Source: Anaerolineae bacterium (GTDB lineage Bacteria; Chloroflexota; Anaerolineae; Epilineales; Epilineaceae). Taken from it: DNA of 64,000 nt. The notes beneath the pieces are model-generated. The model was not told where the DNA came from and did not search any database. It saw nothing but the letters and a program-made list of their open reading frames with translations. Location of the stretch: positions 40-64,039 of the forward strand of contig DAOUCP010000113.1 in assembly GCA_034432155.1 (NCBI GenBank), in the 5' to 3' direction. This document shows, piece by piece, positions 2,583 through 64,000 of the stretch (within the stretch, counting starts at the first letter, position 1; each line of letters begins with the position of its first letter). The translations under genes were made by a program, and so were the position numbers.

Positions 2583-3136
2583 TGTGGCGCGTGCTCCTCA
2601 ACCGCTCGTTCGTCGGCATCGGCATCTTCCGGGCTGCGACTGCCCTACCGGTTCTGCGCTGGCCGTTTTTCGGCGGGCTCACGGCGCTGCTGGGCGATCT
2701 CGGCGATCTTGTGCTCATGAACTACGTGTTCGTGGGCGGCCTGGGAGACTACCAGCGCTGCGACAAGCTCTGGGACCTGGCGTACATGCTGACCTTCCTG
2801 GTCGCTGCTTCCCGCTGGACTGGCCTGGAGCGGAGCATCGCGTTCGGGTTGTTCGGTCTACGGGCAACGGGCGTGGGAGCATTCCTGCTGGGCGCGCCGC
2901 GGCCAATGTTGCTCGCCTTGCCGAATCTCTTCGAGCCTTGGTTTCTCGCCGTCGCCGCCCGCGATCGATGGGCGCCGCACTGGGCTCTCACCAAGCATCG
3001 CGCCGCGGCGCTCTTGCTTCTTGTCGTCGCCCTCAAGGTGCCCCAGGAGTACCTGCTGCACCTCGATCGTCGACTCGACACCATGACGCTGCCTGAATTC
3101 CTGCAGCTCGTCGGCTCGTATCTGGGCCTGCGGTGA
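2583..3136 (+). CDS. Hypothetical integral membrane protein (start uncertain)
   Basis: Several hydrophobic helices; LPVLRWPF..D..DL, DK.WD..YMLTFL, PN.FE.WF and K..QEY.LH segments look like a conserved family; GC-rich codon usage. Confidence 0.65.
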
Positions 3137-3284
3137 CTCGCCGCTCGGACCGACGAGCCTGAATCATCTTCCCTCGGGCACGTGCCGGGGCTTCACGGCC
3201 ATGCCTCGCCGCGCCACGGTGGGCGGCCACCGGCCAGGGCCTTTGCGCACGGGGCGAGCAGCCAGCCACCCCCACGGCCCGTCG

Positions 3285-3840
3285 TCAGGACGCACCAGGA
3301 CCTTTGCCCAGGCGGAGAACATCCGACACGTTCCGTAGCTGGCGGTAGGCATCGACGACGGCTCGAACGGATTGCGGCCAGAGGGCGTCCACGGCGCGCA
3401 AGAACAGATGGCAGGCGAAGTGCCCAGGGTCCGCCCACGGTGCTGCCTCATGCAGCCACTCGATGATCGACAACCTGCTTCGCCGGCCTACCAGGTGGTT
3501 GGGCACGAGTCACAACAGCGCGCGCTCGAAGCGGAAGCCGGGCTCGCACGGGTCCAGCCATGGCGGCAGTCCCAGCTCCTCCCGCAGCGCTCAGGCGGCC
3601 AGGATTCGCCCTAGGGCTTCGCGGACAGCACACCCGCGCCGCCCTCGACCAGCTTCCGCTGCATCTCGGGCGACACAAAGCGACTCAAGCTGACGATGAG
3701 TGCATCGATCTGCTCTTCGGACAGATGATCGACGTTGCCCAACGAGCCGAGGACGATGCGTCGGGGACTGCCACCACGAACGCGCTCGGAGCGACAGATC
3801 TGGAGATAGCGAACCTCCCCGTGGCGAGGTAGGCGAACAT
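3285..3840 (-). mobile_element. IS1634-family transposase remnant (frameshifts, in-frame stops, catalytic core apparently deleted)
   Basis: Stitched frames give YLQICRSERVRGGSPRRIVLGSLGNVDHL..QIDALIVSLSRF, then GRILAA*ALREELGL..FRFERALL*LVPNHL..SRLSIIEWL..HLFLRAVDAL, matching the IS1634 N-terminal pattern, then AYRQL. Confidence 0.65.
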
Positions 3841-3939
3841 CGTGCCTACGGTATGCCGCAGCCGAAATGCCAATACAAGCGCCTTGGCAACCATGCAGTT
3901 CTGGAATAGAGAGCACGACCTGTCCCAAGATCTCATGCG

Positions 3940-4667
3940 CTACATGTCTGCGCTGCCCCTGGCCGCAAGAAAGCCGCCAACTGGGGCTCTCGGTGTCCAG
4001 CACGGCCCAATACCGCTTCTGACCGCAAGACTTGAGCTCGTGTTCGCGAGCGTCACGAGCAGCGGCTGCAGGCACCACTCGCGGGTGTGCGCGAAGTCGG
4101 CAGCTTCGTTCTCGCGGGCGCAAAACGCCGCGCTGTGCGAATCCACATGGATGAACCCCGCGGCGCCGAGGTGCGCTCGTCGCCGGCGTCGGATGGCTGA
4201 CCACACGCCCTCTGAGACATTGTCGACCACGCTTCCTCAGGCTTCGTCCGTGTGCCCGAAGCGCATACCGGGTCGAAGCGTCGCAAGACGTCGCTCGAGG
4301 TTGTGGGAAGGGGACCGCTTGCGTGCCAAGCATCCGAGGGATGCTCGGATCGTGTTCGAGATGGGTCTGATCCTCCATGCACGTGCCGCCGGCGTACACG
4401 TTCAGCACCTGGGTCGGGAAGAGCTTCCGGTCGCTTATCCAAGGTTCGCGCTTCCGTCAGCGGCGGTGCCGCTGGATTCATTGGTAAACACGTAGATAGT
4501 TCGCGAAGGACTGGGGCGCGCTTGCCAGCCGTCGGTCGGCGACGATCGCATCCGGCAGGGTAGGCCCCAGCGGCAAGGAGCAGAAGGGGTCCTGCGAAGC
4601 TGCCGGCGAGCTGGACCTGAATCAACGCATACTCTGTCCGGATCAGCTTGCGGGGGCGTCCGATCAT
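3940..4667 (-). mobile_element. IS1380-family transposase remnant (frameshifted)
   Basis: Stitched frames give VLNVYAGGTCMEDQ..L.HDP....LG...VP.PTT.SD.LRRFD and FIHVDS.......ADFAHTREWCLQPLLVTLANT....VRSG, matching IS1380 DDE N-terminal motifs. Confidence 0.65.
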
Positions 4668-4839
4668 CTGCGTGGGGCGTCAGGAGCAGCTGCAGCTTGA
4701 ATACTGATCCAGCGTCGGTGGCGCCGCTGGCCGCGAGCGCTTGGTGAGGGGTTCGAGGACGGTCCGGCCGCGCGGAAAGGCGCTGGCGAGCGGCGCCGCC
4801 GGGGGTCTCTCTGGTGCTCGCTCGCTGCACCAGCTCAGC

Positions 4840-5310
4840 TCACCCCACGCCCGCATACATCGCAAGGCCCATGGATCCAAGCAGCAGAATCGCAGTGGCC
4901 ACAGTGACAAGCCACAACCTTCGATTCATGCGAAACATCGGAATACCCATCAGAACGATCGAGCCAAAGAAGAGCACAAGATAAGGGACGAGAATGTCGT
5001 AGCGCATTGGAGACCGAAACTCGATCTGCAGAATGTCCTCTACAACGATCATGAACGCCACGAATGCGAGGAACATCGCCGGACCGATCCACTGTCGCCA
5101 GCCAGCGCGTGCGCGCACGAAGGCGACCATGGTCAGAGCTGCTGGGACGGCAAGCGCGATCACACCATAACCAAGAAGTTGATTGATCGCGCGGTCCCCG
5201 GTTAGCACCCGTGACAAGAACCCGGCCGACTGCAGCACATTGACCGCATTCACCACCCCCCACACGGTGAGCGCTGCCCACCACAGATTCCCACGCTTCG
5301 GAACATCCAT
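4840..5310 (-). CDS. Hypothetical membrane protein, about 5 TM helices, 156 aa
   Basis: GGAGG RBS before ATG 5310; alternating hydrophobic segments. Confidence 0.75.
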   Translation of the reverse strand: MDVPKRGNLWWAALTVWGVVNAVNVLQSAGFLSRVLTGDRAINQLLGYGVIALAVPAALTMVAFVRARAGWRQWIGPAMFLAFVAFMIVVEDILQIEFRSPMRYDILVPYLVLFFGSIVLMGIPMFRMNRRLWLVTVATAILLLGSMGLAMYAGVG

Positions 5311-5444
5311 ACGGTACCTCCCGACGGGCGCCGAGGCCCACACCGCTTCCTTGGGAGCGCCCCCTGCCCTACATTGCGCTCTTGCGCCGCCCCGACCCAG
5401 CGAAGCAGTCGGCTGCAAATGCCTGCCACCCGCGCGGCCGCAGT

Positions 5445-7215
5445 TCACCCTTCCATTCCCAGAATGCCAAGAATCTCTCCCGGTTGATGTGCCACCGCCC
5501 ACCGCCAGTGCCCAAAGCCGCCCTGCGCGTTCACGGCCTGTATCCACTCGTCCAGGTAGCGGCGCTTGGACTGGTCTTGCTGGGTATCCTTTCCCTTTGT
5601 TTCCAGGATCAGCATGTCGCCGTTGACGAGACGAGCCAAGAAATCACCCCGATACTTATGAACGATGCCATGGTGAAGATAGGAAATCTCGAAGCCAAGA
5701 TGGTCGTTTTTCACCCAGGCGGCCACCACCGGGCTTTCGTCCAGGACAAAGGCATCAGACGCCTCCCAAGTGCTGTCGTACACGCAGACATTGATGTGCG
5801 ACTTGTCCGTCCGCTCGCAGGGCTTGCCCGTGTACCAGGGCCGCATTTCACCGGTAGACCGGATGGGATGGTCGCGGTCAAAGACCGGCTCGAGGCGCTC
5901 CGTGTTCTCGCGACGCACCGCATGAAATACATGCTGGACGACCCGCGACATGTTGAGGGTGATGATCAGGCGACGGCGCAACGCATCCTGGGCGAAGAGC
6001 GGCGGGTTCACGCGGATGCGGTCCGAGGCGATGAACTGCTCGACGATGCGCACCAGCTGTGCCAGCAGCACCTCGGAGCTGCCCTGGCAGCCTTGTTTCA
6101 TCTGGTCGAAGACATCCCGCGCCGTCTCGAAGATGATGCGCTGGGTGCGGAACTCGTGCGCCAGACGTTCTAGTTCGATGCGGCTCACTTGAGTCACATC
6201 TGGCTTGCCTTCGAGCACCGGTGCGAGCTCCGCCACCTGAGCCGTCTGGGCGGCATCCAGCTCCAGAGGCGGAACGTTCGCCCATTCCATGCGGAGGAGC
6301 GGCTGAACGAGGTGTTCGATACGCACAACATTCGGCCACCGAATCGCAAAGCGCGCTTTGGCGGGATCCGGCGCAACGAGCGTCTTTGGCACTGCCGGGG
6401 GCGGTGGGCCACCGTCGGTATTCTCGTGCGGCAGGAAGGTGAACGGTACGCCAAAGATGTTCACGTATTCTGGCTCGAACAGGCCCGTTGCGGGATTGAC
6501 CTCATAGCAGGTGCGTCGCAAGCCGCGCCCAACTACCTGCTCACATAGCAACTGACTGGTGAAGGCCCGCAGTCCCGTGATGTGGGTGACGGTCTTGGCG
6601 TCCCGCCCTCGGAGAGCATCCCCACCGAGATGACATTCTGCATCTTTCCGCCAGGCTGGCCCGGTTTGCCGACGGTGTCTACCATGGTGCGGAGCAGTTC
6701 CGCTTGTTGGGTTTTGGTCAACTTCTGTTCGAGTGCCACTTCTTGGTCCGCTTCTGCTTCGTCTTCGTCCGGCCGGTGGCCATCCTGCAGCACTGGCGGA
6801 CGAACGCGCCGCCGTCGCTGGGGATCTCAATGCCGGTCCGCTCAGCGGATGGAGCCTCAGTGAGCCAGATGAGGGTTTCCACCGCTTCGAGCTGGCAGAA
6901 GAAGAAGCGGCGCCGGTCGAAATCCTCGGGGTCTTGCCAGTGCTCCAGCAGCCGTTTGGTTATGCTGGTCTCGCCCGGATAGCCAGCCTCGCGCCACCGC
7001 TTGACGCGCGCACGAATCTGATTGACCAGAGGAATCTCGACGAAGATGCCCGGATCATCGAAGGCTTGCGAACTCTCGGAGGCCACCACGTAGCCGGCCG
7101 GGCGGCGTCCCTCGACTAACTCAAACAGCCGCGTCGTCCGGTCGTAGCGCCAGTAGCGTCTCGGTTCTTCGTAGGGCGAGTTGACGATCAGACGGTCAAT
7201 GGTGGCGGTCGGCAT
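5445..7215 (-). pseudogene. res: Type III restriction endonuclease Res subunit (BPTD_3080-like), large internal deletion plus frameshift
   Basis: N-terminus LIVNSPYEEP..GRRPAGY..FFFCQLEAVET..MATG joins directly at ~6771, out of frame, to the EDEAE..KLTK.QQAELL..DTVGKPG..QNVISVGMLSEG segment; 1-nt loss in EG(W)DAKTVTHI at ~6604; C-terminal PD-(D/E)xK domain (Y.GDF..ILETKG) intact. Confidence 0.88.
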
Positions 7216-7558
7216 TACCGGTCTCCCCAGGGATAACCTGCTGCAGTTCCACAATAAGCGGCGGCAGGCCCTCCTGCACGGTCTTCCACAGGATATCAAG
7301 GTTTATGTCGAAATAGGCATGGACAAGGCGATGTCGCATGCCAACAATCTTTTCCCAAGGTATATTGGGCACTTCTGCTCTGGCGTCCAGACTCAGTTGA
7401 TACGCGGCCTCGCCGATAATCTCGATGGCCTTCACCAATGCCCACACGAGCTGCCGATCGTGGTCGAGATCGCTTCGGCTGCGATCGCGGATGAAGCCTA
7501 CCGCCTCGCGCGCGGCATCCAGCATATGCCTCATGCGTATGAGGTCATCCCGCTTCAT
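7196..7558 (-). CDS. hepT: HepT-like (DUF86/HEPN) ribonuclease toxin
   Basis: IEIIGEAA and RX4H motif MRHRLVH followed by AYFD; coupled to the upstream nucleotidyltransferase. Confidence 0.9.
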
Positions 7559-7847
7559 ACTGGACCTCAGCTTCTGCCAAAACATGCTCTCGAAAATAGC
7601 GACTGAGGTCCTCAGGCGTGCGCAGGTCAACCTTACGACCTCCCAACAGCGCCGAAAGTTCCTGCTCCATGCTCACTATGTCAAAGAGGGTAGGGATACG
7701 ATCCGGAGCGAACTCGACCAGAATATCCACATCACTGTCGGCTCCGAAGTCGTCCCGCAACGCTGAGCCAAAGACCGCCAGACGACGGATGCCATGTTTA
7801 TGGCAGAAATGGGCCAAACGATCGCGGTGCATACTATTGCACTTCAT
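7545..7847 (-). CDS. mntA: MntA-type minimal nucleotidyltransferase antitoxin
   Basis: [21 protein letters not shown] (GSX10DXD motif); 100 aa; overlaps hepT start. Confidence 0.9.
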
Positions 7848-7849
7848 AA

Positions 7850-10735
7850 TTAGAGCTCCATCACCTTTAGACTCTCGATGCCACGGTCGTCGACTATCTT
7901 GACCGCGATTCTGCGATGATTACCCGCAGCGAAGGGCAGGGAGACGGTGCCTCGGTACGCCTCGATGAGGTCTTCGTCAATCTCGGCCTTCAGCGCGCAG
8001 GCCAGTTTGGCCCAGCCCTCGTTCTGCCCGGCCATCGGGAAGAAGACCTGACGGGGGAAAAGACTGCGGCCGTCGTAGTCGGTGTCCAGCAGCCACAGGG
8101 CAATCTTGTCCTTTCCACCGGACTCGACACCGCCGGTTTTGGTGTTGTAGTAGTCGAAACCGTGCACCTCGACTACGAAATAACCGTCTTCGCTCTGGCG
8201 CAGTTCCACATCCGGCTGACCGATGAGCCAGAAGGACTCGTTGCTGGCACGCTTCTTCCTCAGGTCATTTGTCAAGAGGTCGGCGCTCATCTGCACCTTG
8301 AGCAGCGTCACGCCCGGGCAGTTCGTCTCGTCAATGTCCTTTGCCGCCTCCGGGTCGAACTGGAATGCGGCGAACACAACCAGTTTTGGCCTTGGAACCA
8401 GCGTTTGGGCTTCCTGAATGGCCTGCTCGACCTGGCGCTGCTCGAGCAAAGCGTGTTCCGGACCGAAGGAGACGACGACACGCAGGGCGTCGTAGGCAGG
8501 CGCCTCTTCCCGCACCGAATCGGCGCCCTCGGGGCTCGGACGAGTTTCTCCGTCAGCATGCAGCCAACGGCAGCCGGCCAGAGGTTCCAGGCGGCTAGAG
8601 CGGATGTACTGCCCCCCCTTGCCGCGGATGCCGGTCTTCAACAGTTCGTCGCGCCATTCCGCTTGGCGCAGCGTCTCGCCAGACCGGGCGACCGAAAGGT
8701 CGGCGCCGTCACTCCCACGCCCTCGCCCAGTCGGAGGCGGGACTAAGTCCTGTACGGATTTCACCACCGGCGCCGGTACGGCCTCCACGGTGAACGGCCC
8801 GGTTACGCGCACGCGCTTGCGGTCCACGAAGGGCTGGTCGTAAAGTGTCTCCTGGCCAGCGTGGCGAGCAATAGCGTCGTCCATTGCTTTCTGCATCTTG
8901 TGGCGCGCCTCGTGAAAGCGCTCAAACGGCTCGCGCGCTTCTTCGGGCCAATCCGCGGGGAACTCGAATGGCACTTCCCACTCCAGCAACGCATTGACCG
9001 ACACCGCCTGGCCGCTCGGCATCGAAATGGTCTCGTAATCGGGCGCGGCAAAGTCCACCACGAGACCGGCTCGCCCTCCGGTGGCAACCCTGAATGGAAC
9101 AGTCTTGCCCTTCAGGGCGGCGTTGAGCTGCCTCAGGGCCTGCTCCACGGCCGGATGCATACGCGCGTAGATGCCGTCGATCTCCGCGTTGTTGGCGATC
9201 GACTTCAGCGTGACATGCGGCACGGTCCTGTAAACGAAGCCCGAGCCGACGCCTTCCTCGGGATGCGCCAGTTCGTAGTAGTCGAAGACAGCGGTCATCA
9301 GGCGCTGACGGGCAAGCGTGATAGCCACACGCGAGGTGTCGCAAGTAATCCAACGCCGACCCCATTGCTCCGCCACGTACGCGGTCGTGCCGCTGCCGCA
9401 GGTGGGGTCGAAAACAGGTCGCCCGGGGTCAGTGGTCATGTGAAGGCAGCGTTCGAGCACCTTTTCTGAAGTCTGAACCACGAATATCAGATTAGCTACC
9501 GCGCTGGTGTCATTCCAAAGATTGTCAATCTTTTGCATAGGAAAGTCATCATAGTATTGCTTGTATCTTGGGATGCCGCCAGTATCGTATAGTCTACCGG
9601 CACTAACAAGGCGTTGCATTCCTTTCTTATGCGTTCTCCAGCTTTTCCTCTGTGGTGCAACAATCCTGCCAGAGAAGAGAAAGTCATAGCTGCATGACTC
9701 TGTGTAACCAGAAGAGTTCAGGTCCCTGAAAGCCAACCTTCTTGTTTGTTGACTTCTGCACAGCTCAGGTGATAACGCACGAACTGCTCTTACTTGTCCA
9801 TTGGGTAACTCGGTGAATGCAAACCATGATTCATCAAGGTGCTTCGCAGCGTAGAGTTGTCTATACTTCAAAAGTTGCTTGTTTTTCGCATACCACACGA
9901 GGATATCATGAACTCTGGGCAACTCTCCGAAACCAAGAGCTGACGACTTGCGGAACGATATCTGTCTTACAAGATTATCCGCTCCAAACACCTCATCCGT
10001 CAGCTCGCGCACGTGGTGGACATTTTCCTCGCTGATTTGCACGAAGATACTGCCACTCTCGGTCAGGAGTTCGCGGGCCAGCAACAGGCGGTCGCGCAGG
10101 TGGGTCAAATAGGAGTGGCTGCCCAGTTCCCAGGTGTCGCGGAAGGCCAGGATCTGCTCCGGCTCGGCGGTCAAGTCTTCGTCGTTGCCGTCCTTCACGT
10201 CGCGCTTGGTCACAAAGGGCTGGAAGTTGGAGCCGTACCTGATGCCGTAGGGTGGGTCGATGTAGACCATTTGCACCTTGCCGGCTAGGCCCTCCTTCTC
10301 CAGCAGGGAGTTCATCACCAGCAGGCTGTCGCCAGCGATCAGCCTGTTCGACCAGCCGTGCGCGTGCCGATAGAACTCGATGGCTTCGCGGAGCGGCTCG
10401 TCGCGCTGCGCCGCGAAGAGTGAGAGTTGCACCGCGGAGGCCCCGCCCTCACCGCGCCGGCGCACCGCCTCAATGATCGTGCGTGGCTCGATGCGCTCAT
10501 GCACGTGCAGGCAGACAGTTGGCACCTCGAAGGAAGTGTGTTCGCCCTTGCCCGCCCAGATCAGCTCCGGGGCCAGGTGCGGGTCGTAGGCGTAGGTCTT
10601 CCTATGCTGGCCGGCCTCCGGGTCCGTTGCCTGGCTCACCAGCCCCACAGGAGGATTGTTGACACGCTGCTTGTCCCGATGCTCGTAGGCGTCAATCGGG
10701 CGATCGGATTCACTTCTCTCGTTTCGTCCCATCAA
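7850..10735 (-). CDS. mod: Type III R-M system N6-adenine DNA methyltransferase (Mod)
   Basis: DPPY (motif IV) and [10 protein letters not shown] (motif I) in beta-class order with TRD between them; 961 aa uninterrupted; upstream of res. Confidence 0.92.
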
Positions 10736-10832
10736 GTTCTCCTGTCCGCGTCTCCCCGTCCCTACCGCAGCCCGCCGATTTGCCAGTCAGCTGCCGGCCG
10801 CAAGCCGAACGACAGAAGCGCACTGCGCCCGT

Positions 10833-11207
10833 TCATGCCGAGCCTGCTCCCGCAATGCCGCCGAGTACGTCGGGCAGCGACTCCCATGCCGCGTAGTGGG
10901 CCGTCGGGAACCTCTCCCGAATGGCGGCTACCTTGCTCGGCGCGCCATCGAGGAAGACGATGGGGATCATCCGTCCCCCTTTCGAAGACCAGAGAGCATC
11001 CGCCACCTCTCGGCCATGCGAGGGGAGTCGTCGGAGTGAGATCACAACCGCCGTGGGGGGATTCCCCTTGATCTCAGCCAGCTTCATCGTCGGCCGCCAA
11101 AGGGCCACCTTCCAGCCGTGCTCGGCCAGAGCGGCCGCTATCTCACGTGCTTCCAAGTCGTCCCAGTGCACCAGCAGCACCGTCCCGCGTTCCTTCATCG
11201 AGCTCAT
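10833..11207 (-). CDS. Stand-alone receiver-like protein (atypical; Ser at phospho-acceptor position)
   Basis: VLLVHWDD, AVVISLRRLPSHGREVA and IPIVF match the REC beta1/beta3/beta4 pattern. Confidence 0.6.
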   Translation of the reverse strand: MSSMKERGTVLLVHWDDLEAREIAAALAEHGWKVALWRPTMKLAEIKGNPPTAVVISLRRLPSHGREVADALWSSKGGRMIPIVFLDGAPSKVAAIRERFPTAHYAAWESLPDVLGGIAGAGSA

Positions 11208-11271
11208 CGGTTCTCCAGTTCATTCTCGCGCGGACGGCTCGCCGACCAGCGCTGGACGCCCTGGGCGACCG

Positions 11272-11724
11272 TCAGCTCCGTCGACTTGTGAACTGGCGTG
11301 CTGTCTCCACGGCAGCCAACAGCCGCTGCGGCTCATCGGTGCCGATGCGGAAGCTCCGCCCGCTGTTCAGCTCCATCTCCACGGCGTCCAACCCCGAGAC
11401 GTTGAACAACCACCGGCGTGGCGTCAACCTGATGCCCCATCCGTAGTACCACGGATTCCGAACGACCCGAGCCTTGCGGATCTCTTCGATACGCCAGCGT
11501 TTCCGAATCAGTCCAGGACCGAACGAAACTACCAACTCGTCCGTAGTCACCTCAACCGTGAGGGCCCCGAACAAGAAGACGGCAGAAGCCAGCAGGACCA
11601 AGAGCCAACCAATCCCGCCGCGTTCGCTGGGCGCGAGAATCCACGCCATCGCGCTCCCTGCAAAGGTCAAGCCGACGCCCAACACGATCAGCGTCCCAAT
11701 CTGCCGGTGCTTGTAGATCTGCAT
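11272..11724 (-). CDS. Conserved hypothetical membrane protein (2 TM plus PH-like soluble domain)
   Basis: Two TM helices then LTVEV..GWGIR..FNVSGLDAVE..IGTDEP..L pattern; GGAG RBS. Confidence 0.75.
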   Translation of the reverse strand: MQIYKHRQIGTLIVLGVGLTFAGSAMAWILAPSERGGIGWLLVLLASAVFLFGALTVEVTTDELVVSFGPGLIRKRWRIEEIRKARVVRNPWYYGWGIRLTPRRWLFNVSGLDAVEMELNSGRSFRIGTDEPQRLLAAVETARQFTSRRS

Positions 11725-11942
11725 CGCGCGGTCCTCCCATTCGCTGCCGGCCTGGAGCTAACTTGCCTGGCGGAAGCTGCTCGGCGCCATCGGATTGTGT
11801 GCCACCCCAGCGCGCCGGGCAAGTGGCACCGACACCACCGCCAGCCAGGTCAACTGCCGCGAGTTCTTGAGCGGCCCTTCATTGCCGAAATGCTCTCTAA
11901 TAGTAATCAGCGCTCTGCCCGGTCGATTTGCATGCCATTCTA

Positions 11943-12342
11943 TCATTCTTCGATAGCCAGTCTCAGAACCAACAAACTCACTAGTAGGCTGATGGTGTAC
12001 AAACACAGCTTTCTAGATACTAGAGTGTGATGCAACGTTTCCCGCGATATTGATGAGAGAATAGACGAAGATAATCCACAAAGCGATCTTGACCATTTTC
12101 TCGAAACGCCTAGCTCTGATGTAGTCTACCCGTGCGGCAACGACGAAAGCACAGATCGGCGTGACAAAGAGAGAAAACGTTTCTAATATGACAGTATTTG
12201 TTTTCTTATTCCCGATTTGGACACCCCAAACAATGTCGGACGGAATTACATCAGCAATCACAAGAAGATGGAAAACCGCCAACATTCCATAGATCACTAA
12301 CAACACATTAGCAGCTAGCTTTGCACCTATAATTCTTTTCAT
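11943..12342 (-). pseudogene. Low-GC membrane protein pseudogene (nonsense codon plus +1 frameshift near the C-terminus)
   Basis: Reading through TAG at 12013-12015 and removing one base restores a hydrophobic end: SSI(E)KAVF(VP)ISLLVSLLVLRLAIEE*; local GC about 40%. Confidence 0.6.
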
Positions 12343-12792
12343 CTGTGCTACTAAGTATGAGTTTTGGGCCATCGCTCAATAGTTACAGTAGGTACAACCG
12401 TCGCCCGCGGATCCATCTTCTATTCGGATATTACTGGTTTCGGGCCAGAGCGCGGCGCGCGCCAGAGCGGTAGTTCAGGCAACAAAAGGTCGGCGGCATG
12501 CCCTGGCTTGCGTGCACCGCCGAGCACTTTCCTGCGCGCCCGGACACGCCTTCCCCGAACAGACCGCCGACGATAGCCGGATCGAGAGCCCCCTGGCTCG
12601 CAGAGGGGCACACCAGTATCCGGGCCGGATCGACTGGGCTAAGATGCGTCCCCCTGGCTCGCAAAGAGGCGCACCGCCCCGGGCCGGACCGTGGATCGGG
12701 TAACGAGCAAGGCCCCGGCCGGACAGGTGCGCACCCTCCGGACCGGTGGCCTTGCTAGCGGGCTGTCGAATGCAGCCGGTTGTCGGGCAGAT

Positions 12793-13476
12793 CTATTTCA
12801 CGTCCGGCAGCTTCTTCAGGCACATGAACCAATCGAGGCATGTCACATCGGGATCGGGTTTCTCCACCCGATCCTTGGCCACGCCACAAGAACCCGGAGG
12901 CGGAACGATGACATCGTCGCCAGGCTGCCAGTTTGCCGGCGTCGCGATTCCATACTTGTCGGACGTTTGCATAGCAATCAGCAAACGCATGATCTCATCC
13001 ATGTTACGCCCATTAGAAAGCGGGTAGTACAGGATTGCCCGCACGATCCCTTTGGGGTCAATGATGAAAACAGCCCTAACTGCCTGCGTAGTACTCGCGC
13101 CAGGCTGCAGCATACCGAAAGCTCTTGACACTTCCATTTTGAGATCTTCAATAACCGGGAAGGTCACCTCGATATCCCGCATGCCCTTGTAGCTGATCTT
13201 CTCTTTGATTGTACGCAACCACGCGATATGTGCATAGATGCTGTCAATCGAAAGCCCGAGAAGCTTGCAGTTCCTCTTCGCGAATTCCTCTTGCATGGAA
13301 GCGAAGGTCATGAACTCCGTCGTACACACCGGAGTAAAATCTGCGGGGTGCGAGAAAAACACGACCCAACTTCCCTCAAAATCCTTGGGGAAATGAATCT
13401 CGCCCTGTGTTGTCTTAGCCGTGAACTCCGGTGCCTTGTCACCAATCAATGGCATTCGTACGACCTCTTCGCTCAT
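12793..13476 (-). CDS. Peroxiredoxin, Prx6 (1-Cys/archaeal TdxH-like) subfamily
   Basis: FSHPADFTPVCTTE peroxidatic motif; YYPLSNGRN; ATPANW; extra C-terminal Cys in PGSCG and CLDWFMC; AGGAG RBS. Confidence 0.92.
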   Translation of the reverse strand: MSEEVVRMPLIGDKAPEFTAKTTQGEIHFPKDFEGSWVVFFSHPADFTPVCTTEFMTFASMQEEFAKRNCKLLGLSIDSIYAHIAWLRTIKEKISYKGMRDIEVTFPVIEDLKMEVSRAFGMLQPGASTTQAVRAVFIIDPKGIVRAILYYPLSNGRNMDEIMRLLIAMQTSDKYGIATPANWQPGDDVIVPPPGSCGVAKDRVEKPDPDVTCLDWFMCLKKLPDVK

Positions 13477-13785
13477 TGCTTTGTGCTCCTTCTATCATAA
13501 TGGTTTATCTGGCGGCAAGCTAGGTATGCTTCCCACCCGACAGGCTCACGACTCGCCCGCACGAAGCGTCGGCCGCGTACCGCGGGCCCGGGGCCAGCAC
13601 GCCACCGCCCCGAAGCTCCCGCCTGCTACTTGGTGTTCGGGAAGGCGGTGTGCCCCAACCACGGCGGTGCGGACTTCATCCCAAGTGTACCTTTGCACAA
13701 CCCAGGCCGTCAAGCGCCTGCCGGGCCGCATCGACACTGCTTTCGGCCTGGCCTACGATCCGTCAGCAAACGCGCAGCGGGCGAC

Positions 13786-13940
13786 GGGGGCGACCAAGGT
13801 GGGAACCACAGAGCCGGCGCGCCCACTCTCGAGCCTTGGGGGCGACCGAGGTGGGAATCACAGCGCCGGCGCGCTACTCTCGAGCCTACGGGGGCAACCG
13901 AGGTGGGAATCAAGAGCCGGCGCGCCCACTCTCGAGCCTA
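13786..13940. repeat. Three tandem ~52-bp repeats with an internal hairpin (gaggtggg...cccactctc)
   Basis: Copies start at 13786, 13838 and 13890: gggggcgaccgaggtgggaatcacagagccggcgcgcccactctcgagcct. Confidence 0.85.
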
Positions 13941-14221
13941 GGGCGGCCACGAAGGCAGGGCCCTTCCCTGCGTACCTCCGCCAGCCAGGGCTGCAGGTCG
14001 ACACCGTCCATGCCCAACAGGGCAAAGCGCTTCGGCCCGCGGTCGCCGACGTGCGCATCGCGTTCGAGGAGCGTATGCTGGGCCAGTTGCCCTGATCCTG
14101 GCCACCTTTGCGGATCGGCGCGGGCCGGACCACTTGACGCGGCCCGCCGCCGCGGGGCAGAATGGCTCGACGCCCTCAGGGCCGAACGGTGCTTTGGCCC
14201 ATGCTTCCGAAGGAGTGCCCC

Positions 14222-16512: not shown

Positions 16513-19500
16513 CTAGAATGGCACTGGCGGTCGGTCGCGCAAGCTCCAGCGGGAGGGAGGAGTCCATGGACTCCCGACCGACGTGCCAAGTTGAGCCCCT
16601 TTCACGGACCGCGTGGTGCCGCGACCCGGAGTGCTAGCGGCAACTCCGTCGACGTGGGCGAAGTTGGCATCGGCAGAGTCTGCCCCGGCGGAAGCTGCGC
16701 CGGCAAAGGCCGGATGCGCAGCCCCTGCCCCGGCGGACACCGGGCCTGCGGACCCCGGACCGGCGGAGGTCGGACTAGCCGACCGACGTAGGGCAGCGCT
16801 GCCTGCCACCGCGGCACGGCCGGGCCCCTTGGTAGCGGCGGACAAAGGGAGCCCGAGATCGGTCGCAAACCGCGGCATCAGTCGATAGCCCCCCTCGTAG
16901 GGTCGGCGGGCAGCGTATTGGCTTACGATGCCGGCGACTGCCCAACGCTGGCCACGTCGCAGCGGCGGACGGCGCAGCTTGGTGCGCGGATCGATCCGGA
17001 TCCGGCACTCCCCTGAGCCGTCGTCCAGCCACACCGCGCTGCCGATCAGGCGCGTCACGCGACCGCGGACGACGACCAGGCGGCCCTCGAACTCCTCACC
17101 CATCGCACCGCTGGCCACCGGCACCGGCTCGATTGGCGGCCAGGCCCAGTCATCGAGCCACACTTCCGTCGAGTGGGAGAGGACCAGTTGCCGCTCGCCA
17201 TGGTAGCTACCCAGCGTACCACGGGCCGCCACCGGCGAGCCGACCGGCAGCGTTGGCAGCGCGCCATTCCGGACACCCAGGTAGAGGCGCAGACCGCTCG
17301 ATGCGTCGCCGATGTACATGGTGCGTGCACCGAACAACCCCGCAGGCGCGAGAACAACGCCCCGCAGGGCCACGGCCTGGCCATCGGCGAGCTGGCGCAC
17401 TGCCGCCAGGCCAAGATCGCGGTAGTCGGCGGCGGGCTTCGGCCCCTCGACCCGAGTGGCCAGCGGCGTCGGAGCCGCCGGCGGGGACGGTGAAGGCGCC
17501 AGCCGATTGGCCTCGCCCGGCGTCGCTTGGCAGTCCGCACGCCAGTCGCCGCCATCGGGCAGTCGACACAGCGAGCGATCGTAGCTCGGCCCGGTTTCCC
17601 AAGAGACCACGTCGGCGACCATGCCGTCGCGGCGCACGAGCCGCACCTCGTCGGCCCGGTTGCCGAGCGCCAGGCCCGACTCGGCGCGATGAATCACCCG
17701 AAAGCCCCGGGCGGCGATCACCTGGCCGTCGCGAAAGCGGAACGACCAACGTTCCGGCTCGCCCACCGTCAGGCGCCAGCCAGCCAGATCGACCGGGAAA
17801 GCCGAGCGGTTATACAGCTCGAGCCACTCGTCGGTGAAACCCGACGCTCCACTGGCATCCCAGTCCACCGTCCGCGGTGCCGGCAGTAGCTCGTTGATCA
17901 CCACCTCGGGCGCCTGCGACTGGAGCACGCCCGCCTGGCCTGGAGACGGCACCGGTTGCGGCCACCAGTCCTCGGCGCAGTCGGTGTCCTGGTCGCGAGG
18001 AATGCGCTCGATGGACCAGCCCGGCGGCACCAAAGGCACCGCCGGGTCAAAGGCATCGAGGTTGCCGCCGTAGCTGACGGCGTCGCCCACCAACCCCGTC
18101 GGGTCGCGCACCCGCACCAGGTCGCCCTTGTTGGCGAGGCCATTGCCGATCCGCCCGTCGGGCACCACCCACACCGCGGCGCCACTCGCCTCCACCTCGC
18201 GCGCCACATCGCGGGAGGCGACGACGACGAGGTAGCCTCTTGGGGGCACCACCTGATCCCCTAAGCTGTCCCAGCTCACTGCATCGCCCACCGCCCAGCC
18301 CTTCGTTCGAACGGGAGCATCCGACCGATTGAACAGCTCCAACCACTCGTATGCCGAGTCGTCGCCCGAGGCCAAGGCGTCGTACAGCACCTCGGTGACT
18401 ACCATCGGCAGGTAGGCCGGCGTCGGCACCACCGTGGCGCCAGGACCGGCGGTCGGCTGCCCTGGCCGCGTCGGCGTAGGCCGGACGGCACCAGGCGTGG
18501 TCGTAGGGCCGACCGTCCGTGTTGGCGTGGCGCGCCCCTCACCCGGTGTGGCCGAAGGGGCCTGCGTCGGGCCCGCAGGTGTGGGGGTTGGGTGGGGTGA
18601 TCCATTCGGCCCACCGGGCGAGGGCGATAGGGAATCGGTCCAGGGTCCGCTGCCGTCCGGCAGTCGGGCGTAGCTACCGTCGGGGACGGTGCGAGGGTAC
18701 TCCATCTCGTCGGCTGACGAGCCATCCGGTCGCAGGAGTCGCACCGTGTCGCGGTCGTTGTTGAGCACGATCTTGCTGTCCCGGCGAAAGAACAAGAGGT
18801 AGCCGCGGGAACGGAGCACCGTACCTTCCGGCAGGACGAAGGGTGCCGATCCACCGTCGGCGACGTCATCGAGTTGCCACCCACGAAGGTCCATGTCGAC
18901 GTCAGCCAGACTGGTGAGCTCGATCCATTCGTCGTTCGCCGAAGCGGTTCCGTCGCCGTCCCAATCGACATCGCGTGGCGCCGCCAAGAACTCATTCAGC
19001 GCCACGTCGCCAAATGCCGCTGTCGGCACGGGATGCTCGCTCGTCGGCGGCCGAGGATTGTCCCCCGCGGCCTCGCCAGGCGTTGGCGACGGCTGATCGA
19101 TCCAGTCGGCGGCCGAATCGGTGTCCGCTCCCGCGGGATACCGCTCCAGGCTGTGGCCAGCGGGCGCGCCGGGGACACTGGGATTCAGCAAGCCCACGTC
19201 ATCGCCGTAGCTCATGCCGTCCACCAGTTCGCCCAGCGCGTTCAGCAGCCGCACCTGATCGCCGCTGTTGCCCAGGCCGTTGCCGATGCGACCGTCCAGC
19301 CGAACGACCCGTCCGGCAAACCCCGGATGGAGTTCCTCGAAGCCGTCTCCAGCGGCGACGACCACGAACTCGCCGCTCGCCAGCTCGAGATCCGGCAGCG
19401 CGCTGGCAGATCGATTGTCACCGATCTGCCACCCGGACATCTTCACCGGTCCCGCGTCGGCGTTCCGCAGTTCGAGCCACTCGTAGGCTGCCTCGCTGCC

Positions 19501-59334: not shown

Positions 59335-61683
59335 TCAGTCGCGCTGAGCCACCGGCACGTACAGATACCACACCGCACCCGCTGGATCGACCGTGCCGTA
59401 TGCGAAGAGCCCCGCCGACGTGGCCAACCAGACGGTCCCATCCACGCCGATCGCCAGGTCGCGGACCAGCGCCCCCTCGGGCAAGCCGATCTCGGCGGCT
59501 TGGAACGCGTCGATCCACAAGCCGGCCGGGTTCTGGGCCGCCAGGATGCCACGGGCCGAGGCAAGCCACCGCTCGCCGTCCGGGCCATAGGCGGCCGCTG
59601 CCACCCAGTCATCGCCCACGCCGTTTGGGAAGAGCGGCGAGTTCGACAGGTCGATCACCGCTGCCCAGGTCTCGCCGGCGAACTGATTCTCGTACACGTG
59701 GGTGCTCACGGTGCGGCGGCTCGCCGGATCGAGGCTGTGGCGCTCCACCCACGTGAAGACCACCGGCCGACCGTCCGGCCGCAAGCAAGCCGCGGTTGCG
59801 TGTCCGCCGGTGCGGTAGCGCGGCGACATGGCGACGTCCAGAAGAACGGGGAAGGGCACGCCACTTACCTGTGGCAGTGGATAGAGGGCCCGATGCCCCA
59901 CAGCCCAACCACCGCTCGGTGCGCCGGCGGGTGCTGGGTTGGCGAGCAGCCGGACGGACGGCACACCCCGCCTCAGGGCCGTGGGATCGACATCCAAGAT
60001 CAGGTCGCCTTGCAGGTGCCGGCCGGCCACATAGGGCCGCAGGCCAGCGATCCTGCAGGGGGCGATGCCGGTACAGCGGACCGTAGTCTCGACTGGCACC
60101 CGTGCGATGCCGGTCCGATCCACGAGCACCTCTTGGTGCAGTCGGACGCGACCGTCCGGTGACCACTCGTCGGCTCCCTCGACGCGCCAGCTCTGACCAT
60201 CGAAGTATTCGGCACCGATCCAAACATCGCCTCGCTCGTTGAATGCCCAGAAGCCCTCCAGGACCCCCAAGCGCCGAACGTCCTGGCTCTGCCGCATCAC
60301 CGCCTGGCGCAAGTCGGCATAGAGGCGCCACGGGCCGTGCGCCAGGGCGGCTACCACGCCATCCGGCCGGCGTTCGCCAAGGTAGACTCGCACCCACGCC
60401 GTGCCGTCGGCATCGGTGCTCACGCGCCGGACATCGTCGGACGCGAGCGGGGCGTTGGCACGGCTAAAATGCCGCCAGCTTCGACCAGGAAGACGTGTGG
60501 GGAAGGCCGTCGGCATCGGTGATGGCATGACGGCAGTCGGTGTGCCAGTTGGTGGGGCGGTGGGCGAGGCCGTCGGCGATCGTGTTCCCGTAGGCGTCGA
60601 CGTGGCGGTCGCTACCATGGCCGTGCCCGTCAAGGTGCTGGTTGGAGTCCACAGTCCGGTGGCCGTCGCCGTACCGGGCTGGGTGGGCGTGGGCAGCACC
60701 GGTTGCGGCATGGCGAGAGCGATCCGCTGTGCCTTCCAGGAAGCAGTGAAGACGCCGAGTAGCTGCAGGTCCGCTGGATCGCTGGCATCCACAACCTCGA
60801 GCCCGCCATCCAAGCGGGCCACGAAGACGCGCTGCCCCTCGCCGGCAACGTCCACGAAGTCGCCCGGAAGAGAGCCGATCACAGAGGGCATCACCGGATC
60901 GCTGTCGTCCACGGCGCTCAGACCTCCCGGCTCGGAGCCGCTTGCCGTGGCCGCGACGTACGTCATGTCGGCAACGGCTACGGCGCGCATGTCGCCTGAC
61001 AGCGCGATCCCGCCGAGGCCAGCAGGCTGCGGCGGCTGCCGAATGTCGGCGATGGACAGGCCATGGATGGGCAGCCGACCCACGAGCAACAGCCATCGGT
61101 CGCGGATGGCCAGGTCCTCTGGGCGGCCGAGGAACAGACCCACTTGTTCGGGCTGGCTCGCATCCGCTACCCGGACCACCACCACCCCGAGAGCCCCGGC
61201 GAGGTAAGCGTAATAGCCGTCCGCCACCACCGCCGTGGCACCGAGCTGCAGCGTTCCCAGCACGGCCGGGGCCGTCGGGTCGGCCACATCGACCACGTGG
61301 AAGGACGTGGGGCTGACGAGGTACGCACGATCGCCAAACACGGCGACATCGGTGGCGTCTTCGGCGAGCGAACCGACGAGTTGCGGCGCCGTCGGATCGG
61401 TGACATCCACGATGGCCATACCGGCAGCGCCACGCGCGAGGTAGGCGTGCCCTTCCTGCACGACGACCGCCCGGGTGCCCGTCAGATCAGCGACGGCGCC
61501 CACCTCCACCGGTGCGGCGGGGTCGGATACGTCTACCACGCGCAGCCCATCCTCGCCAGCAGCCACAAACACGTGCGAAACAGGCTGTGCCTGACGCGAG
61601 GGCAACGCCTCGAAGAGGCCGATGGCGGCCACGCCACCGACCACCACCAGCGCGACGCGATGCGCGACACTTAGATCGTTCAC
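59335..61683 (-). CDS. Secreted LVIVD-repeat beta-propeller protein with Pro/Thr linker and second propeller-like (regulator-propeller) domain
   Basis: GLRVVDVSDP..P, GMAIVDVTDP, SFHVVDVADP etc.; LASDDVR..STDADG..W and VRDLAIG.DG.VWLAT..GL; ends YLYVPVAQRD. Confidence 0.85.
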   Translation of the reverse strand: MNDLSVAHRVALVVVGGVAAIGLFEALPSRQAQPVSHVFVAAGEDGLRVVDVSDPAAPVEVGAVADLTGTRAVVVQEGHAYLARGAAGMAIVDVTDPTAPQLVGSLAEDATDVAVFGDRAYLVSPTSFHVVDVADPTAPAVLGTLQLGATAVVADGYYAYLAGALGVVVVRVADASQPEQVGLFLGRPEDLAIRDRWLLLVGRLPIHGLSIADIRQPPQPAGLGGIALSGDMRAVAVADMTYVAATASGSEPGGLSAVDDSDPVMPSVIGSLPGDFVDVAGEGQRVFVARLDGGLEVVDASDPADLQLLGVFTASWKAQRIALAMPQPVLPTPTQPGTATATGLWTPTSTLTGTAMVATATSTPTGTRSPTASPTAPPTGTPTAVMPSPMPTAFPTRLPGRSWRHFSRANAPLASDDVRRVSTDADGTAWVRVYLGERRPDGVVAALAHGPWRLYADLRQAVMRQSQDVRRLGVLEGFWAFNERGDVWIGAEYFDGQSWRVEGADEWSPDGRVRLHQEVLVDRTGIARVPVETTVRCTGIAPCRIAGLRPYVAGRHLQGDLILDVDPTALRRGVPSVRLLANPAPAGAPSGGWAVGHRALYPLPQVSGVPFPVLLDVAMSPRYRTGGHATAACLRPDGRPVVFTWVERHSLDPASRRTVSTHVYENQFAGETWAAVIDLSNSPLFPNGVGDDWVAAAAYGPDGERWLASARGILAAQNPAGLWIDAFQAAEIGLPEGALVRDLAIGVDGTVWLATSAGLFAYGTVDPAGAVWYLYVPVAQRD

Positions 61684-61865
61684 CGGACGCCCCGCCTTCC
61701 TGGCCAAGATCTGGCTCCGCGATCCGAGCTTACACGCAGTGGAGCCTCGAATCAAGCCCCTGTGCCCAGACATTCGCGGACAAGGCAGCGCTGGGGGTAA
61801 GGCGCAAGGCCTCCAGCTTCGGGCCTGGATCGGGAATGGCATCTGCCGGATGGCGAAGGTGGGCT

Positions 61866-61990
61866 GGCGGCCTCGCGGCCGGAGCGCGAAGCTGGGGGTT
61901 GCGGCCCTGCAGCCGGAGCGCGAAGCCGTGGCTGTGGCCTCGCGGCCGGAGAGCGAAGGCGCGGTTGCGGCCTTCCAGCGGGATCGCGAG
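61866..61990. repeat. About four imperfect 33-bp tandem repeats (gcggcc....gccggagcgcgaag)
   Basis: Read directly at 61866-61990; upstream of the LVIVD gene. Confidence 0.6.
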
Positions 61991-62204
61991 CCTGTCAAGC
62001 GTCAGCTGGGAGGACTGCCCCAGCCTTCCTGTCCTGCACCGGTCATCGGCTGGACACGAGCCGAGTCCCCAATGAGAGTGCGCCCAGCTGGCGTCGTGCC
62101 GACACGACCAGAAGCTTGTGGCGCACGGGTGCCATGGCGCCGCCCAGGACCTCGCCACCATCCCCACCGCCACTCGCCGGCCGACGTGCCCCCCGGGCCT
62201 TCAG

Positions 62205-62583
62205 GCGCGTCGTCCGTAGACTGCTGATGAAGCAGGGGCGTGAGCTATCGCCCCTGTCTGCGGGCGCTGCGTGCGGGACGACTTCCCCCACGTCCGGATC
62301 CCGTACCGAACCACGACGGAGCTAGGGCTACGGGAGCGCTTCCACCAGACGTTCCAGGCGGAAGAGGTTTCCTTTCGTCTCTACGACGAGGCCGAGCACC
62401 TTCGACACTGCTTCGCCGAGTTTCCCAACCGCACCAACCCTGTCCGACCACACGGGGCACTCCGCCCGCGACGAGGTGATCCCTCGGCGCCGGCCGACGG
62501 GTAGGTGCACGGGCGGTAAATTCGAATCCCCCTGCGAGCCGCTGGGTAGCGCGTGCTGTCCAACCAACCCCGGGTTCCGCGCA
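62205..62583 (+). mobile_element. IS3-family transposase remnant (integrase core C-terminus) with possible right end
   Basis: HVRIPYRTTTELGLRERFHQTFQAEEVSFRLY...AEF..RTNPVRPHGALRP..GDP..PADG*VHG matches the IS3 rve C-terminal pattern; stops in frame; tgtcc...gca terminus near 62556-62583. Confidence 0.65.
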
Positions 62584-62618
62584 GGACCATGCGTTGCCCA
62601 TGCGCGGCTGGGACCGTC

Positions 62619-62770
62619 CCTTGACCCCGCGCACGAGCGGGGACTACGTAGCGGCGGCCGGGCTGCCCCGGCTTGACAGGCTTGACCCCCCGCACGAGCG
62701 GGGACGACTGGCGATCGCCAAGCTCGCCAAGCGGCTACGGCCTTGACCCCCCCGCACGAGCGGGGACTAC
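62619..62770 (-). CRISPR. Minimal CRISPR array: 3 repeats (29, 29, 30 bp), 2 spacers of 32 bp, type I-E-like; no cas genes in window
   Basis: Repeats 62619-62647, 62680-62708, 62741-62770; minus-strand consensus GT(A/C)GTCCCCGCTCGTGCGGGGGGTCAAG(G/C) with CCCCGC/GCGGGG stem; unique spacers; 61-bp period. Confidence 0.8.
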
Positions 62771-62868
62771 CATGGCCAGCGTGGGGTGTTCCGCTCTGTC
62801 TACTGCCCGCCAACTGCCCCGGCGTGCCCCCGCCGTGCGACAGATCGCTCCGCCATGGAGGTGCCCCC

Positions 62869-64000
62869 ATGTCCCCTCTCTGCGCCCGACGAGCCGTCCG
62901 CCGCCTGGTCGCTCTGGTCATCCCCGCCACCCTCGCCCTCACGACAGGCACCTCCACCCCGGAGGTGGCCGGGGCGCCACCGCCAACCCCGCCGGTGCGG
63001 CCCGACCGGGCCACGCCCATTGACGCCGCCAAGGCCACGCAGCGGTCCCCCGTGCTCGTCGCCGACGGCGACGGCAACCTTTATGCCATCTGGCAGGACT
63101 TCCGCGATCAGGGCGGCTCCCGGCTGCGCTTCGCCTTCCGACCGGCCGGCGGCGGCTGGCAACCCAGCCAGCGGGTCAGCCGCGACAACGTCTTTCAATG
63201 GCGCCCGACCCTGGCCATCGACGGCGGTGGCAACGTCTACGCCGCCTGGTTGGAGGACCGTGCGGACCAGGACAAGGTTTACTTCGCCTTTCGTCCGTCG
63301 GGCGGGGCGTGGGGCGAGGGCGAAGCCCTCACCCGCGGCCTGTCGCGACAGGAGGAGCAGGCGCGGCCGGCCCTGGCGGTGAACCGTCGTGGCGATGCCG
63401 TCCTCGCCTGGGCGCAGGGGTCAAACCAGACCAAGCAGCACGCCGTCTACGCCGCGATGCGTCCGGCCGGCGGTGACTGGGCAGCGGCCGAGCGTCTGGC
63501 AGAGTTCAGCGGCGAGCTGTGGCGGTTCGACGCGGACGTTGCCATCGACGACTGGGGGGGCGCGCACGTTCTCTGGAGTGCCGCGCCCGAGGGTCCACGG
63601 CTGTACGCCACCCGTGCGCCGGGTGGGCCGTGGACCACGCCGTTGGACGTACGCCAGGGCAGTGGCGGTGAGGTGGCAACACCTCGCCTCGCGCTCGACA
63701 GCGCGGGCAACGCCCACGCGGTGTGGCAGGAGGAGCGCGACGGCGATGTCGACATCTACGGCGCTTACCGGCCGGCCGGCGGGCCATGGAGCACCAGCCT
63801 CCGCATCAGCGACGATGGTGGCGGCAGGCTGCAGAGCGTGCCCGACATCGCAGTCGACGGCGCGGGCAACGCCATCGCGACGTGGACGGACGGGCGCCGG
63901 GGCATAGGGGATATGTACGCCTCCGTGCGCCCGCGCAGCGGCGGATGGAGTGCCAATGTGCTGTTCCTGCACTGGACGCCAGCGGCAGCGCAGTCGACCC
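62869..64000 (+). CDS. Secreted beta-propeller repeat protein (BNR/sialidase-like repeats), runs off the window end (absent from ORF track)
   Basis: GGAGG RBS before ATG 62869; signal peptide; repeats of P.(L/I)A.D..GN..A.W.D.R...(I/V)Y.A.RP.GG.W. Confidence 0.85.
   Translation, partial: MSPLCARRAVRRLVALVIPATLALTTGTSTPEVAGAPPPTPPVRPDRATPIDAAKATQRSPVLVADGDGNLYAIWQDFRDQGGSRLRFAFRPAGGGWQPSQRVSRDNVFQWRPTLAIDGGGNVYAAWLEDRADQDKVYFAFRPSGGAWGEGEALTRGLSRQEEQARPALAVNRRGDAVLAWAQGSNQTKQHAVYAAMRPAGGDWAAAERLAEFSGELWRFDADVAIDDWGGAHVLWSAAPEGPRLYATRAPGGPWTTPLDVRQGSGGEVATPRLALDSAGNAHAVWQEERDGDVDIYGAYRPAGGPWSTSLRISDDGGGRLQSVPDIAVDGAGNAIATWTDGRRGIGDMYASVRPRSGGWSANVLFLHWTPAAAQST

Follow-up and report, generated by a model that had tools for sequence, protein, structure and literature searches.

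The stretch of DNA analysed here, hereafter the window, comprises 64,000 nucleotides (nt) of contig DAOUCP010000113.1 from an Anaerolineae bacterium (assembly GCA_034432155.1). Close to its right-hand end lies a very small feature that is almost certainly CRISPR-derived. It occupies 62619-62770 and comprises three repeats, each 29-30 nt long, with two dissimilar spacers of 32 nt between them, and a first-pass annotation made from the letters alone had listed the same repeats, coordinates and two unique 32-nt spacers. We found the same sequences again, each spacer occurring once in the window. The array is located between two divergently oriented genes, one coding for a protein with LVIVD repeats on the minus strand and the other for a BNR-like protein on the plus strand, in agreement with the divergent intergenic region described by that annotation. 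A stump of an IS3-family transposase gene is found on its left (Table 1).

Table 1 Features of the array and its surroundings (positions are those of the window)
Feature	Position	Strand	Sequence	Remarks
LVIVD-repeat protein gene, left neighbour	59335-61773	-		Pfam LVIVD, E 3e-26
IS3-family transposase gene, 3' stump	62262-62531	+		Located by phmmer homologues and tblastn mapping
Gap	62532-62618	.		87 nt between the last transposase homology and R1; no repeat-like sequence
Repeat R1	62619-62647		plus strand CCTTGACCCCGCGCACGAGCGGGGACTAC; minus strand GTAGTCCCCGCTCGTGCGCGGGGTCAAGG	29 nt; terminal, trailer end
Spacer 1 (older)	62648-62679	-	CTGTCAAGCCGGGGCAGCCCGGCCGCCGCTAC	32 nt; unique in the window
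Repeat R2	62680-62708		plus strand GCTTGACCCCCCGCACGAGCGGGGACGAC; minus strand GTCGT-CCCCGC-TCGT-GCGGGG-GGTCAAGC	29 nt
Spacer 2 (newer)	62709-62740	-	CCGTAGCCGCTTGGCGAGCTTGGCGATCGCCA	32 nt; unique in the window
Repeat R3	62741-62770		plus strand CCTTGACCCCCCCGCACGAGCGGGGACTAC; minus strand GTAGTCCCCGCTCGTGCGGGGGGGTCAAGG	30 nt; leader-proximal if the array is read on the minus strand
Expected leader position	62771-62868	-		98 nt, 72% GC, up to the start codon of the divergent gene
Repeat-rich BNR-like protein gene, right neighbour	62869-64000	+		ATG at 62869; extends past the window

The repeat starts are 61 and 62 nt apart, and a repeat search of the window returned them as a single direct-repeat family of three copies, whose repeat can be written GTCGTCCCCGCTCGTGCGGGGGGTCAAG. 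Near-identical direct repeats of 23-50 nt that alternate with unique spacers of constant length, the hallmark of CRISPR, are thus present, and two spacers make the smallest array accepted by most callers. No two of the three repeats are identical. R2 differs from the other two at position 3 and at its last base, R1 carries a G-to-C change in the 3' arm of the stem, and R3 has one additional G, in a homopolymer run, where the stem meets the handle, which makes its predicted 5' handle 9 nt long. When the 21-25-nt core of the repeat was sought with up to three mismatches, the array copies were the only ones in the 64 kb, with 0.00-0.02 expected from shuffled sequences. At a threshold of at least 19 of 29 identical bases, the array repeats scored 23-29 and four other sites of the window exactly 19. 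In gapped alignments, neither flank showed another degenerate repeat that outscored random windows. As neither the flanks nor the rest of the window hold other copies, the array consists of exactly three repeats and two spacers. Spacer 2 itself holds a perfect 9-nt tandem duplication (TCGCCAAGC twice, 62715-62732, found by Tandem Repeats Finder). At the border between spacer 1 and R2 (62670-62687), there is a 9-nt near-duplication, GGCTTGAC followed by A or C, the minus-strand start of spacer 1 being the same as the last 7 nt of R2. Both may stem from slippage during replication or from unusual protospacers.

On the minus strand, R2 has the canonical layout of type I-E repeats, with five unpaired nt, a 6-nt stem arm, a 4-nt loop, the second 6-nt arm and an 8-nt tail; its stem comprises six pairs, or seven if a U-G pair is counted. 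R3 has the same organisation with one extra base, and its predicted fold is a 7-bp stem with a 4-nt loop. In R1, the G-to-C change is predicted to shift the register, which gives a 6-bp stem and a 6-nt loop. The predicted folding energies of all three lie between -13.8 and -14.3 kcal/mol, R2 and R3 both being at -14.3 kcal/mol. We built a covariance model from 11 I-E-class repeats, none of them from the window, namely five Streptomyces variants, four metagenome repeats and those of Escherichia coli and Thermus, and ran it with the search filters off. It matched all three repeats over their full length on the minus strand, with R2 as the top match in the window (29.9 bits, E 1.7e-8), R3 at 23.4 bits (E 4.6e-6, with a one-base insertion) and R1 at 22.3 bits (E 1.2e-5). 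On the plus strand, the bare hairpin alone matches the model, at 17 bits, and 80 kb of GC-rich control loci gave at most 16.3 bits. A scan of 62400-63000 against Rfam with E values up to 10 returned nothing, which is uninformative since its models are too short for the search space.

The same repeat class emerged from the comparison of the array with 72,556 plasmids by BLAST. Streptomyces records came out on top, and no annotated gene lies beneath the matches. The match that we inspected, on a Streptomyces rochei plasmid (NZ_CP121272.1), is a long run of repeats with a 61-nt period adjoining cas3/casA/casB/cas7e, and it aligns in the same orientation as the minus strand of the window. Like the window array, this I-E array has a 29-nt repeat, 32-nt spacers and a 61-nt period. 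Its repeat, GTCGTCCCCGCGCCTGCGGGGGTAGCTC plus a variable base, is identical to R2 at 21 of 29 positions, and the last base varies in both. The two also share the GTCGT-CCCCGC-NNNN-GCGGGG-8-nt layout, with the same first 11 bases and the same 3' stem arm. They part in the handle, which is GTAGCTCN in Streptomyces and GGTCAAGN in the window. Furthermore, unlike the S. rochei array, that of the window has neither cas neighbours nor a leader, and it is limited to three non-identical repeats. Because plasmid I-E arrays match, the covariance model fits and GC-rich controls score lower, the array can be assigned, as judged from sequence, to the I-E (Cas6e-hairpin) repeat class, and the minus strand is the sense of the CRISPR RNAs (crRNAs). 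The first-pass label of 'type I-E' holds as far as the repeat fold is concerned, given the layout, the covariance model and the plasmid I-E arrays. It should not be carried over to the cognate effector, since the 3' tail departs from the I-E consensus. Elsewhere in the window, a lone look-alike, GTTGTTCTCGCGCCTGCGGGGTTGTTCG, is found at 17331-17358 on the minus strand, within the gene of a lamin-tail-domain protein. At 18.2 bits (E about 4e-4, a rough value), it slightly exceeds the best control score and probably reflects chance.

Could the three GC-rich palindromes be something else, such as repetitive extragenic palindromic (REP)-like elements or RNA hairpins of a 5' region, that came to lie 61-62 nt apart by chance? 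The palindromes do fold on the plus strand as well, as the 17-bit partial matches indicate, and this is the sense strand of the right-hand gene. Moreover, their position between divergent genes corresponds to a promoter or 5' untranslated region. Nevertheless, we regard this explanation as very improbable. The full-length match to the I-E class, including the unpaired 5' and 3' parts, exists on one strand only, and the geometry of 29 + 32 nt is found exactly, twice. Besides, REP-like elements come as many solitary or paired copies strewn over intergenic regions, and there are none elsewhere in the 64 kb. The exact repeat has no copy in the genome, metagenome and viral collections searched, among which the source genome and its near relatives do not figure. 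The proposal that the repeat might belong to a REP or insertion sequence (IS)-end family dispersed singly over the genome is not borne out, as solitary copies are lacking in the 64 kb and, in exact form, in those collections.

The 3' tail of the repeats, which corresponds to the 5' handle of the crRNA, sets the array apart. It reads GGTCAAG followed by C or G (8 bases, GGTCAAGN), and its columns are unmatched in the covariance alignment of the window repeats. Consensus tails of I-E repeats are ATAAACCG for E. coli, ATGGACCG and GTAGCTCC. To our knowledge, the tail of the window resembles none of them, and the I-E consensus 3' tail is absent from its repeats. Two adjacent CCCCGC-N4-GCGGGG-NN-TCAAG repeats were found in none of 185,579 species genomes (one genome per species). 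With a less strict two-repeat pattern, 241 million metagenome records yielded 26 loci, mostly coding sequences or other tandem repeats, among which five (L014, L015, L019, L009 and L026) are true arrays, their period being 61 nt and their spacers 32-33 nt long. In both arrays whose upstream genes are visible, L014 (Ga0335395_10000103, 3679-10434) and L015 (Ga0075163_10044704, 1571-5471), the order is Csf2, Csf3, a Cas6e-like protein, Cas1e, leader and array, and no Cascade genes were seen. The matches of Csf2, Csf3 and Cas1e exceed the NCBIfam cutoffs (TIGR03115, TIGR03116 and TIGR03638, respectively). L015 has a weak, below-cutoff match to Cas2e between Cas1e and the leader. L014 additionally encodes Csf1 and a Csf5-type Cas6 on the opposite strand, and its array is followed by a CRISPR-associated DEDDh exonuclease. 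L009 (2238-2327) and L026 (3361-3450) are repeat-spacer-repeat units with the L014 repeat, carried by one contig (Ga0335395_10000111) of the same sample as L014. The former has the L014 leader and adjoins a truncated, C-terminal type IV-A DinG/Csf4 (E 2e-74) and a TnpB fragment, and next to the latter is a TnpB gene of IS605. The pair has the appearance of an array and cas locus fragmented by IS605-family elements.

Type IV loci have been described without adaptation genes, and type IV-A3 arrays, whose repeats and leaders are similar to those of type I-E, can be lengthened by I-E Cas1-Cas2 provided in trans (PMC7038947, PMC8175902, bioRxiv 10.1101/2023.06.23.546257). As adaptation genes are not part of the described type IV loci, L014 and L015 may represent a rare lineage, similar to type IV-A3, that has an I-E-type adaptation module of its own. 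The window array resembles theirs in repeat class, in the handle motif NNTCAAGN and in its 32-nt spacers, and the L014 repeat variants are identical to R2 at 22-23 of 28 bases. In contrast, L014 and L015 have 14-23 near-identical repeats, a conserved leader and preceding genes for Csf2, Csf3, a Cas6e-like protein and Cas1e, none of which is present in the window. Parallel cases are L009 and L026, which are orphan mini-arrays of the same repeat family. In public data, the TCAAG tail occurs solely in arrays tied to type IV-A-like effector genes and Cas1e, a link that we take as a lead and not as a classification.

The surroundings of the array are those of an orphan. The expected leader position bears no likeness to the leaders of L014, L015, L019 and L009, which resemble one another, and it lacks the A+T richness of a type I-E leader, in which Cas1-Cas2 and IHF sites would be expected; on the other side, 62506-62618 has 68% GC. 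Neither a sigma-70-like promoter nor an intrinsic terminator was predicted in 61900-63100. Pfam scans of the open reading frames of the window, picked by length or codon-position GC (a few short candidates excepted), revealed no cas families. Hence, within the window, neither the cas3/cse1/cse2/cas7e/cas5e/cas6e/cas1e/cas2e genes of an I-E locus nor the csf and dinG genes that go with type IV-A arrays adjoin the repeats. In these respects the first-pass annotation, which had reported no cas genes in the window and no AT-rich leader, was right: candidate reading frames contain none of the former according to Pfam, and the flanks are at 72% and 68% GC. An array devoid of leader would be unable to gain new spacers.

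The spacers give no hint of a target. With as many as three mismatches allowed, neither has a counterpart elsewhere in the window, and IMG/VR yielded none either, whether the search was exact or ignored every sixth base. Phage and plasmid collections gave BLAST matches of 22-34 nt only, with E values of at least 0.6, the chance level for GC-rich 32-mers. Neither a protospacer nor a protospacer-adjacent motif could be named from the window, IMG/VR, phage and plasmid searches. Orphan arrays and mini-arrays described earlier (PMC7038947) are similarly very short, distant from cas genes and located beside debris of transposable elements. As for mini-arrays borne by viruses or plasmids, they usually lie within the mobile element and target its rivals, whereas the array described here sits amid chromosomal housekeeping genes and has no identifiable target.

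The debris on the left of the array is probably of the IS3 family. The frame 62244-62501 matches Pfam rve_3 with an E value of 3e-4; its 21 bits fall short of the cutoff, which is 26.5. When 1.84 billion representatives were searched exhaustively with phmmer, 102 relatives emerged at 50-60% identity (best E 1.9e-18), and ten of them were scanned for domains: rve_3 is present in nine, rve in seven, HTH_21 in four and HTH_Tnp_1 in one. HTH_21-rve-rve_3 is the usual composition of IS3-family OrfB transposases, on which the IS3 label is based. By tblastn mapping, the surviving part corresponds approximately to residues 212-302 of a 323-residue homologue, and its tail contains two in-frame stops. 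Of the catalytic core and the N-terminal two thirds of the transposase, nothing is left on the upstream side, and no terminal inverted repeats were found. Searches of plasmids by tblastn and a word-indexed protein search retrieved no relatives of the remnant; the exhaustive HMMER search alone succeeded. One homologue (P0085) extends 21 residues beyond the aligned part, and both the eroded remainder of the transposase frame and the right-hand end of the IS probably lie in the gap before R1. An IS3 end had initially been placed about 35 bp to the left of the array. The IS3-family remnant is supported, as a 3' stump, by phmmer and Pfam; the transposase homology stops at 62531, 87 nt before R1. 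As the array reads from right to left, the IS stump abuts its trailer end, where the oldest spacers lie, and not its leader end.

Altogether, we consider it most likely, with moderate confidence, that the array is a relic unable to work on its own, because it has no leader, no cas genes in view, non-identical repeats and no recognisable targets, and because it is squeezed between a truncated IS and the start of a gene. The most degenerate stem, that of R1, is at the expected trailer end. A larger array, a complete CRISPR-Cas locus or a fragment of a mobile element carrying one would have undergone IS-associated rearrangement and deletion to leave the present remnant. In one of the two scenarios first proposed, the relic had been cut by an IS insertion. 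The relic status is retained here; the IS cut could cover the loss of older spacers, but would not account for the lack of a leader and of cas genes. The loss of these would require a further rearrangement, unless the fragment arrived already broken. Production of crRNAs would need read-through transcription from right to left and a compatible Cas6e-type nuclease encoded elsewhere in the genome. The products would then be two crRNAs of 61-62 nt. The crRNA with the older spacer would have the normal 8-nt handle of R2, GGUCAAGC, and the 3' hairpin of R1 with its enlarged loop, and that with the newer spacer would start with an abnormal 9-nt handle from R3. As for the machine that built and would read the array, a type IV-A-like complex with I-E-type Cas1-Cas2 and a classical I-E Cascade are equally likely, because, outside the window, the TCAAG handle has been seen solely in arrays that adjoin type IV-A-like genes.

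A number of points weigh against this interpretation. The window represents nearly all of its 64,466-nt contig, and the array lies within about 1.7 kb of the contig end. With about 64.5 kb of genome in view, a cas locus and sister arrays could lie on other contigs, and it is for this reason that the relic call is based on the condition of the array. Its decay is mild, as both spacers are exactly 32 nt long and all hairpins are predicted to fold at about -14 kcal/mol. The extra G of R3, being part of a homopolymer, could stem from faulty assembly, and working arrays normally have a degenerate terminal repeat. The promoter scan covered sigma-70 consensus sites only, which may not suit the phylum of the host. 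Regarding the machine, the link with type IV consists of a handle motif of 5 nt, the very one that defined the search, and it involves three metagenome contigs only. Outside the handle motif, the window repeat is at least equally close to the I-E repeats of Streptomyces.

A variant of the relic hypothesis differs in the source of the array. A piece of a type IV-A-like or I-E locus from a plasmid or an integrative and conjugative element (ICE) might have been joined to the chromosome via the IS3-family element and the rest deleted later, the IS stump and the array end being left as one scar. The two are indeed adjacent, each of them truncated. Type IV loci are found mainly on plasmids and ICEs (PMC7038947), and the handle family is tied to such loci; in addition, the related arrays L009 and L026 are visibly broken by IS605/TnpB elements. 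On the other hand, the scar, with about 72% GC, is not distinct from the chromosome around it, no other plasmid or ICE genes are found nearby, and the spacers are GC-rich like the host, which fits native acquisition. We therefore consider this origin unlikely.

Alternatively, the array could be a working satellite that operates in trans, with a Cas6e-type nuclease and an I-E Cascade or a IV-A-like Csf/DinG effector encoded elsewhere, perhaps on a plasmid, for defence or gene silencing. Three intact hairpins, exact spacer lengths and the normal 8-nt handle predicted for the older-spacer crRNA would be in keeping with such a role, and L009 and L026 testify that mini-arrays of this repeat family exist at a distance from cas genes. 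It is also of relevance that type IV-A systems silence their targets and work with components supplied in trans (bioRxiv 10.1101/2023.06.23.546257; PMC7038947). However, no leader, promoter-like site or cas gene is in view, every repeat is a separate variant, and the spacers are unmatched in the window, IMG/VR, phages and plasmids. Even the mini-array of L009 retains its leader, unlike that of the window. Such a use thus appears possible, if rather doubtful. The functions in trans, in regulation or in self-targeting that the first-pass annotation envisaged are left unsupported, as there is no self-match in the 64 kb and no promoter-like site, and the repeats all differ. It is tempting to speculate that the mini-array serves, from the chromosome, as an active guide cassette for a IV-A-like (Csf/DinG) system with I-E-type adaptation that is encoded elsewhere, for example on a plasmid, although we hold this to be a long shot. 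If this were true, the chromosome would borrow the nuclease-free, silencing-type CRISPR effector of a plasmid, and TCAAG-handle repeats would mark a little-known type IV lineage in Chloroflexota-like bacteria.

Four other candidates were considered and rejected. The 61-nt period breaks the reading frame of a protein-coding repeat. An array of a CRISPR-associated transposon is at odds with the absence of tns genes and with the repeat class. There is no cas operon for a cas-regulating mini-array, and there are no phage genes for a prophage mini-array.

Orphan and degenerate CRISPR arrays are common and well known, and they matter chiefly for annotation. The present one is best annotated as a degenerate minus-strand array of the I-E class and should not be listed as a working locus. 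The rarity of its handle, absent from the arrays of the 185,579 species genomes and tied in metagenomes to type IV-A-like loci with Cas1e, adds a modest value. The array may be the footprint of a rare type IV-like lineage in an uncultured Chloroflexota-like organism. The added interest lies mostly with the related metagenome loci and less with the window. Together with L009 and L026, the window array provides an example of insertion sequences splitting arrays of this repeat family into pieces devoid of cas genes.

The genes of the window include those for RpoD, Obg, electron transfer flavoprotein subunits, an acyl-CoA dehydrogenase, an aldehyde dehydrogenase, VWA proteins and glycosyltransferases. 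From this gene content, the array has a chromosomal setting, amid housekeeping and envelope genes. The closest relative is GCA_900174595.1 (FWPV01000183.1, a 222-kb contig), with an Obg protein 80% identical and synteny over more than 20 kb; the 21 kb of that contig that were compared end about 16 kb before the position of the array. Named relatives belong to the Caldilineae, Anaerolineae and Ardenticatenales (Chloroflexota). The LVIVD gene probably starts with an ATG near 61773 or with a GTG near 61680. The right-hand neighbour gives a weak match to BNR_4, below the Pfam cutoff, and its DNA contains the direct-repeat families D2 and D3. Its hydrophobic N-terminus suggests that the protein is probably secreted. 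Its homologues are 31-53% identical, the nearest named ones being proteins of Chloroflexi metagenome-assembled genomes, and no synteny was gained through them.

Between the likely start of the LVIVD gene and the IS stump, a 33-bp tandem repeat is found at 61845-61973 (3.9 copies, 73% matches, consensus GCCGGAGCGCGAAGCCGGGCTTGCGGCCTCGCG). Lastly, the region 4000-14000 stands out by its G+C content of 57-63%, compared with about 68%. It harbours the gene of a 961-residue N6/N4 DNA methylase (7850-10735, minus strand) and several open reading frames without Pfam match, and may have been gained by horizontal transfer as a restriction-modification or defence island.

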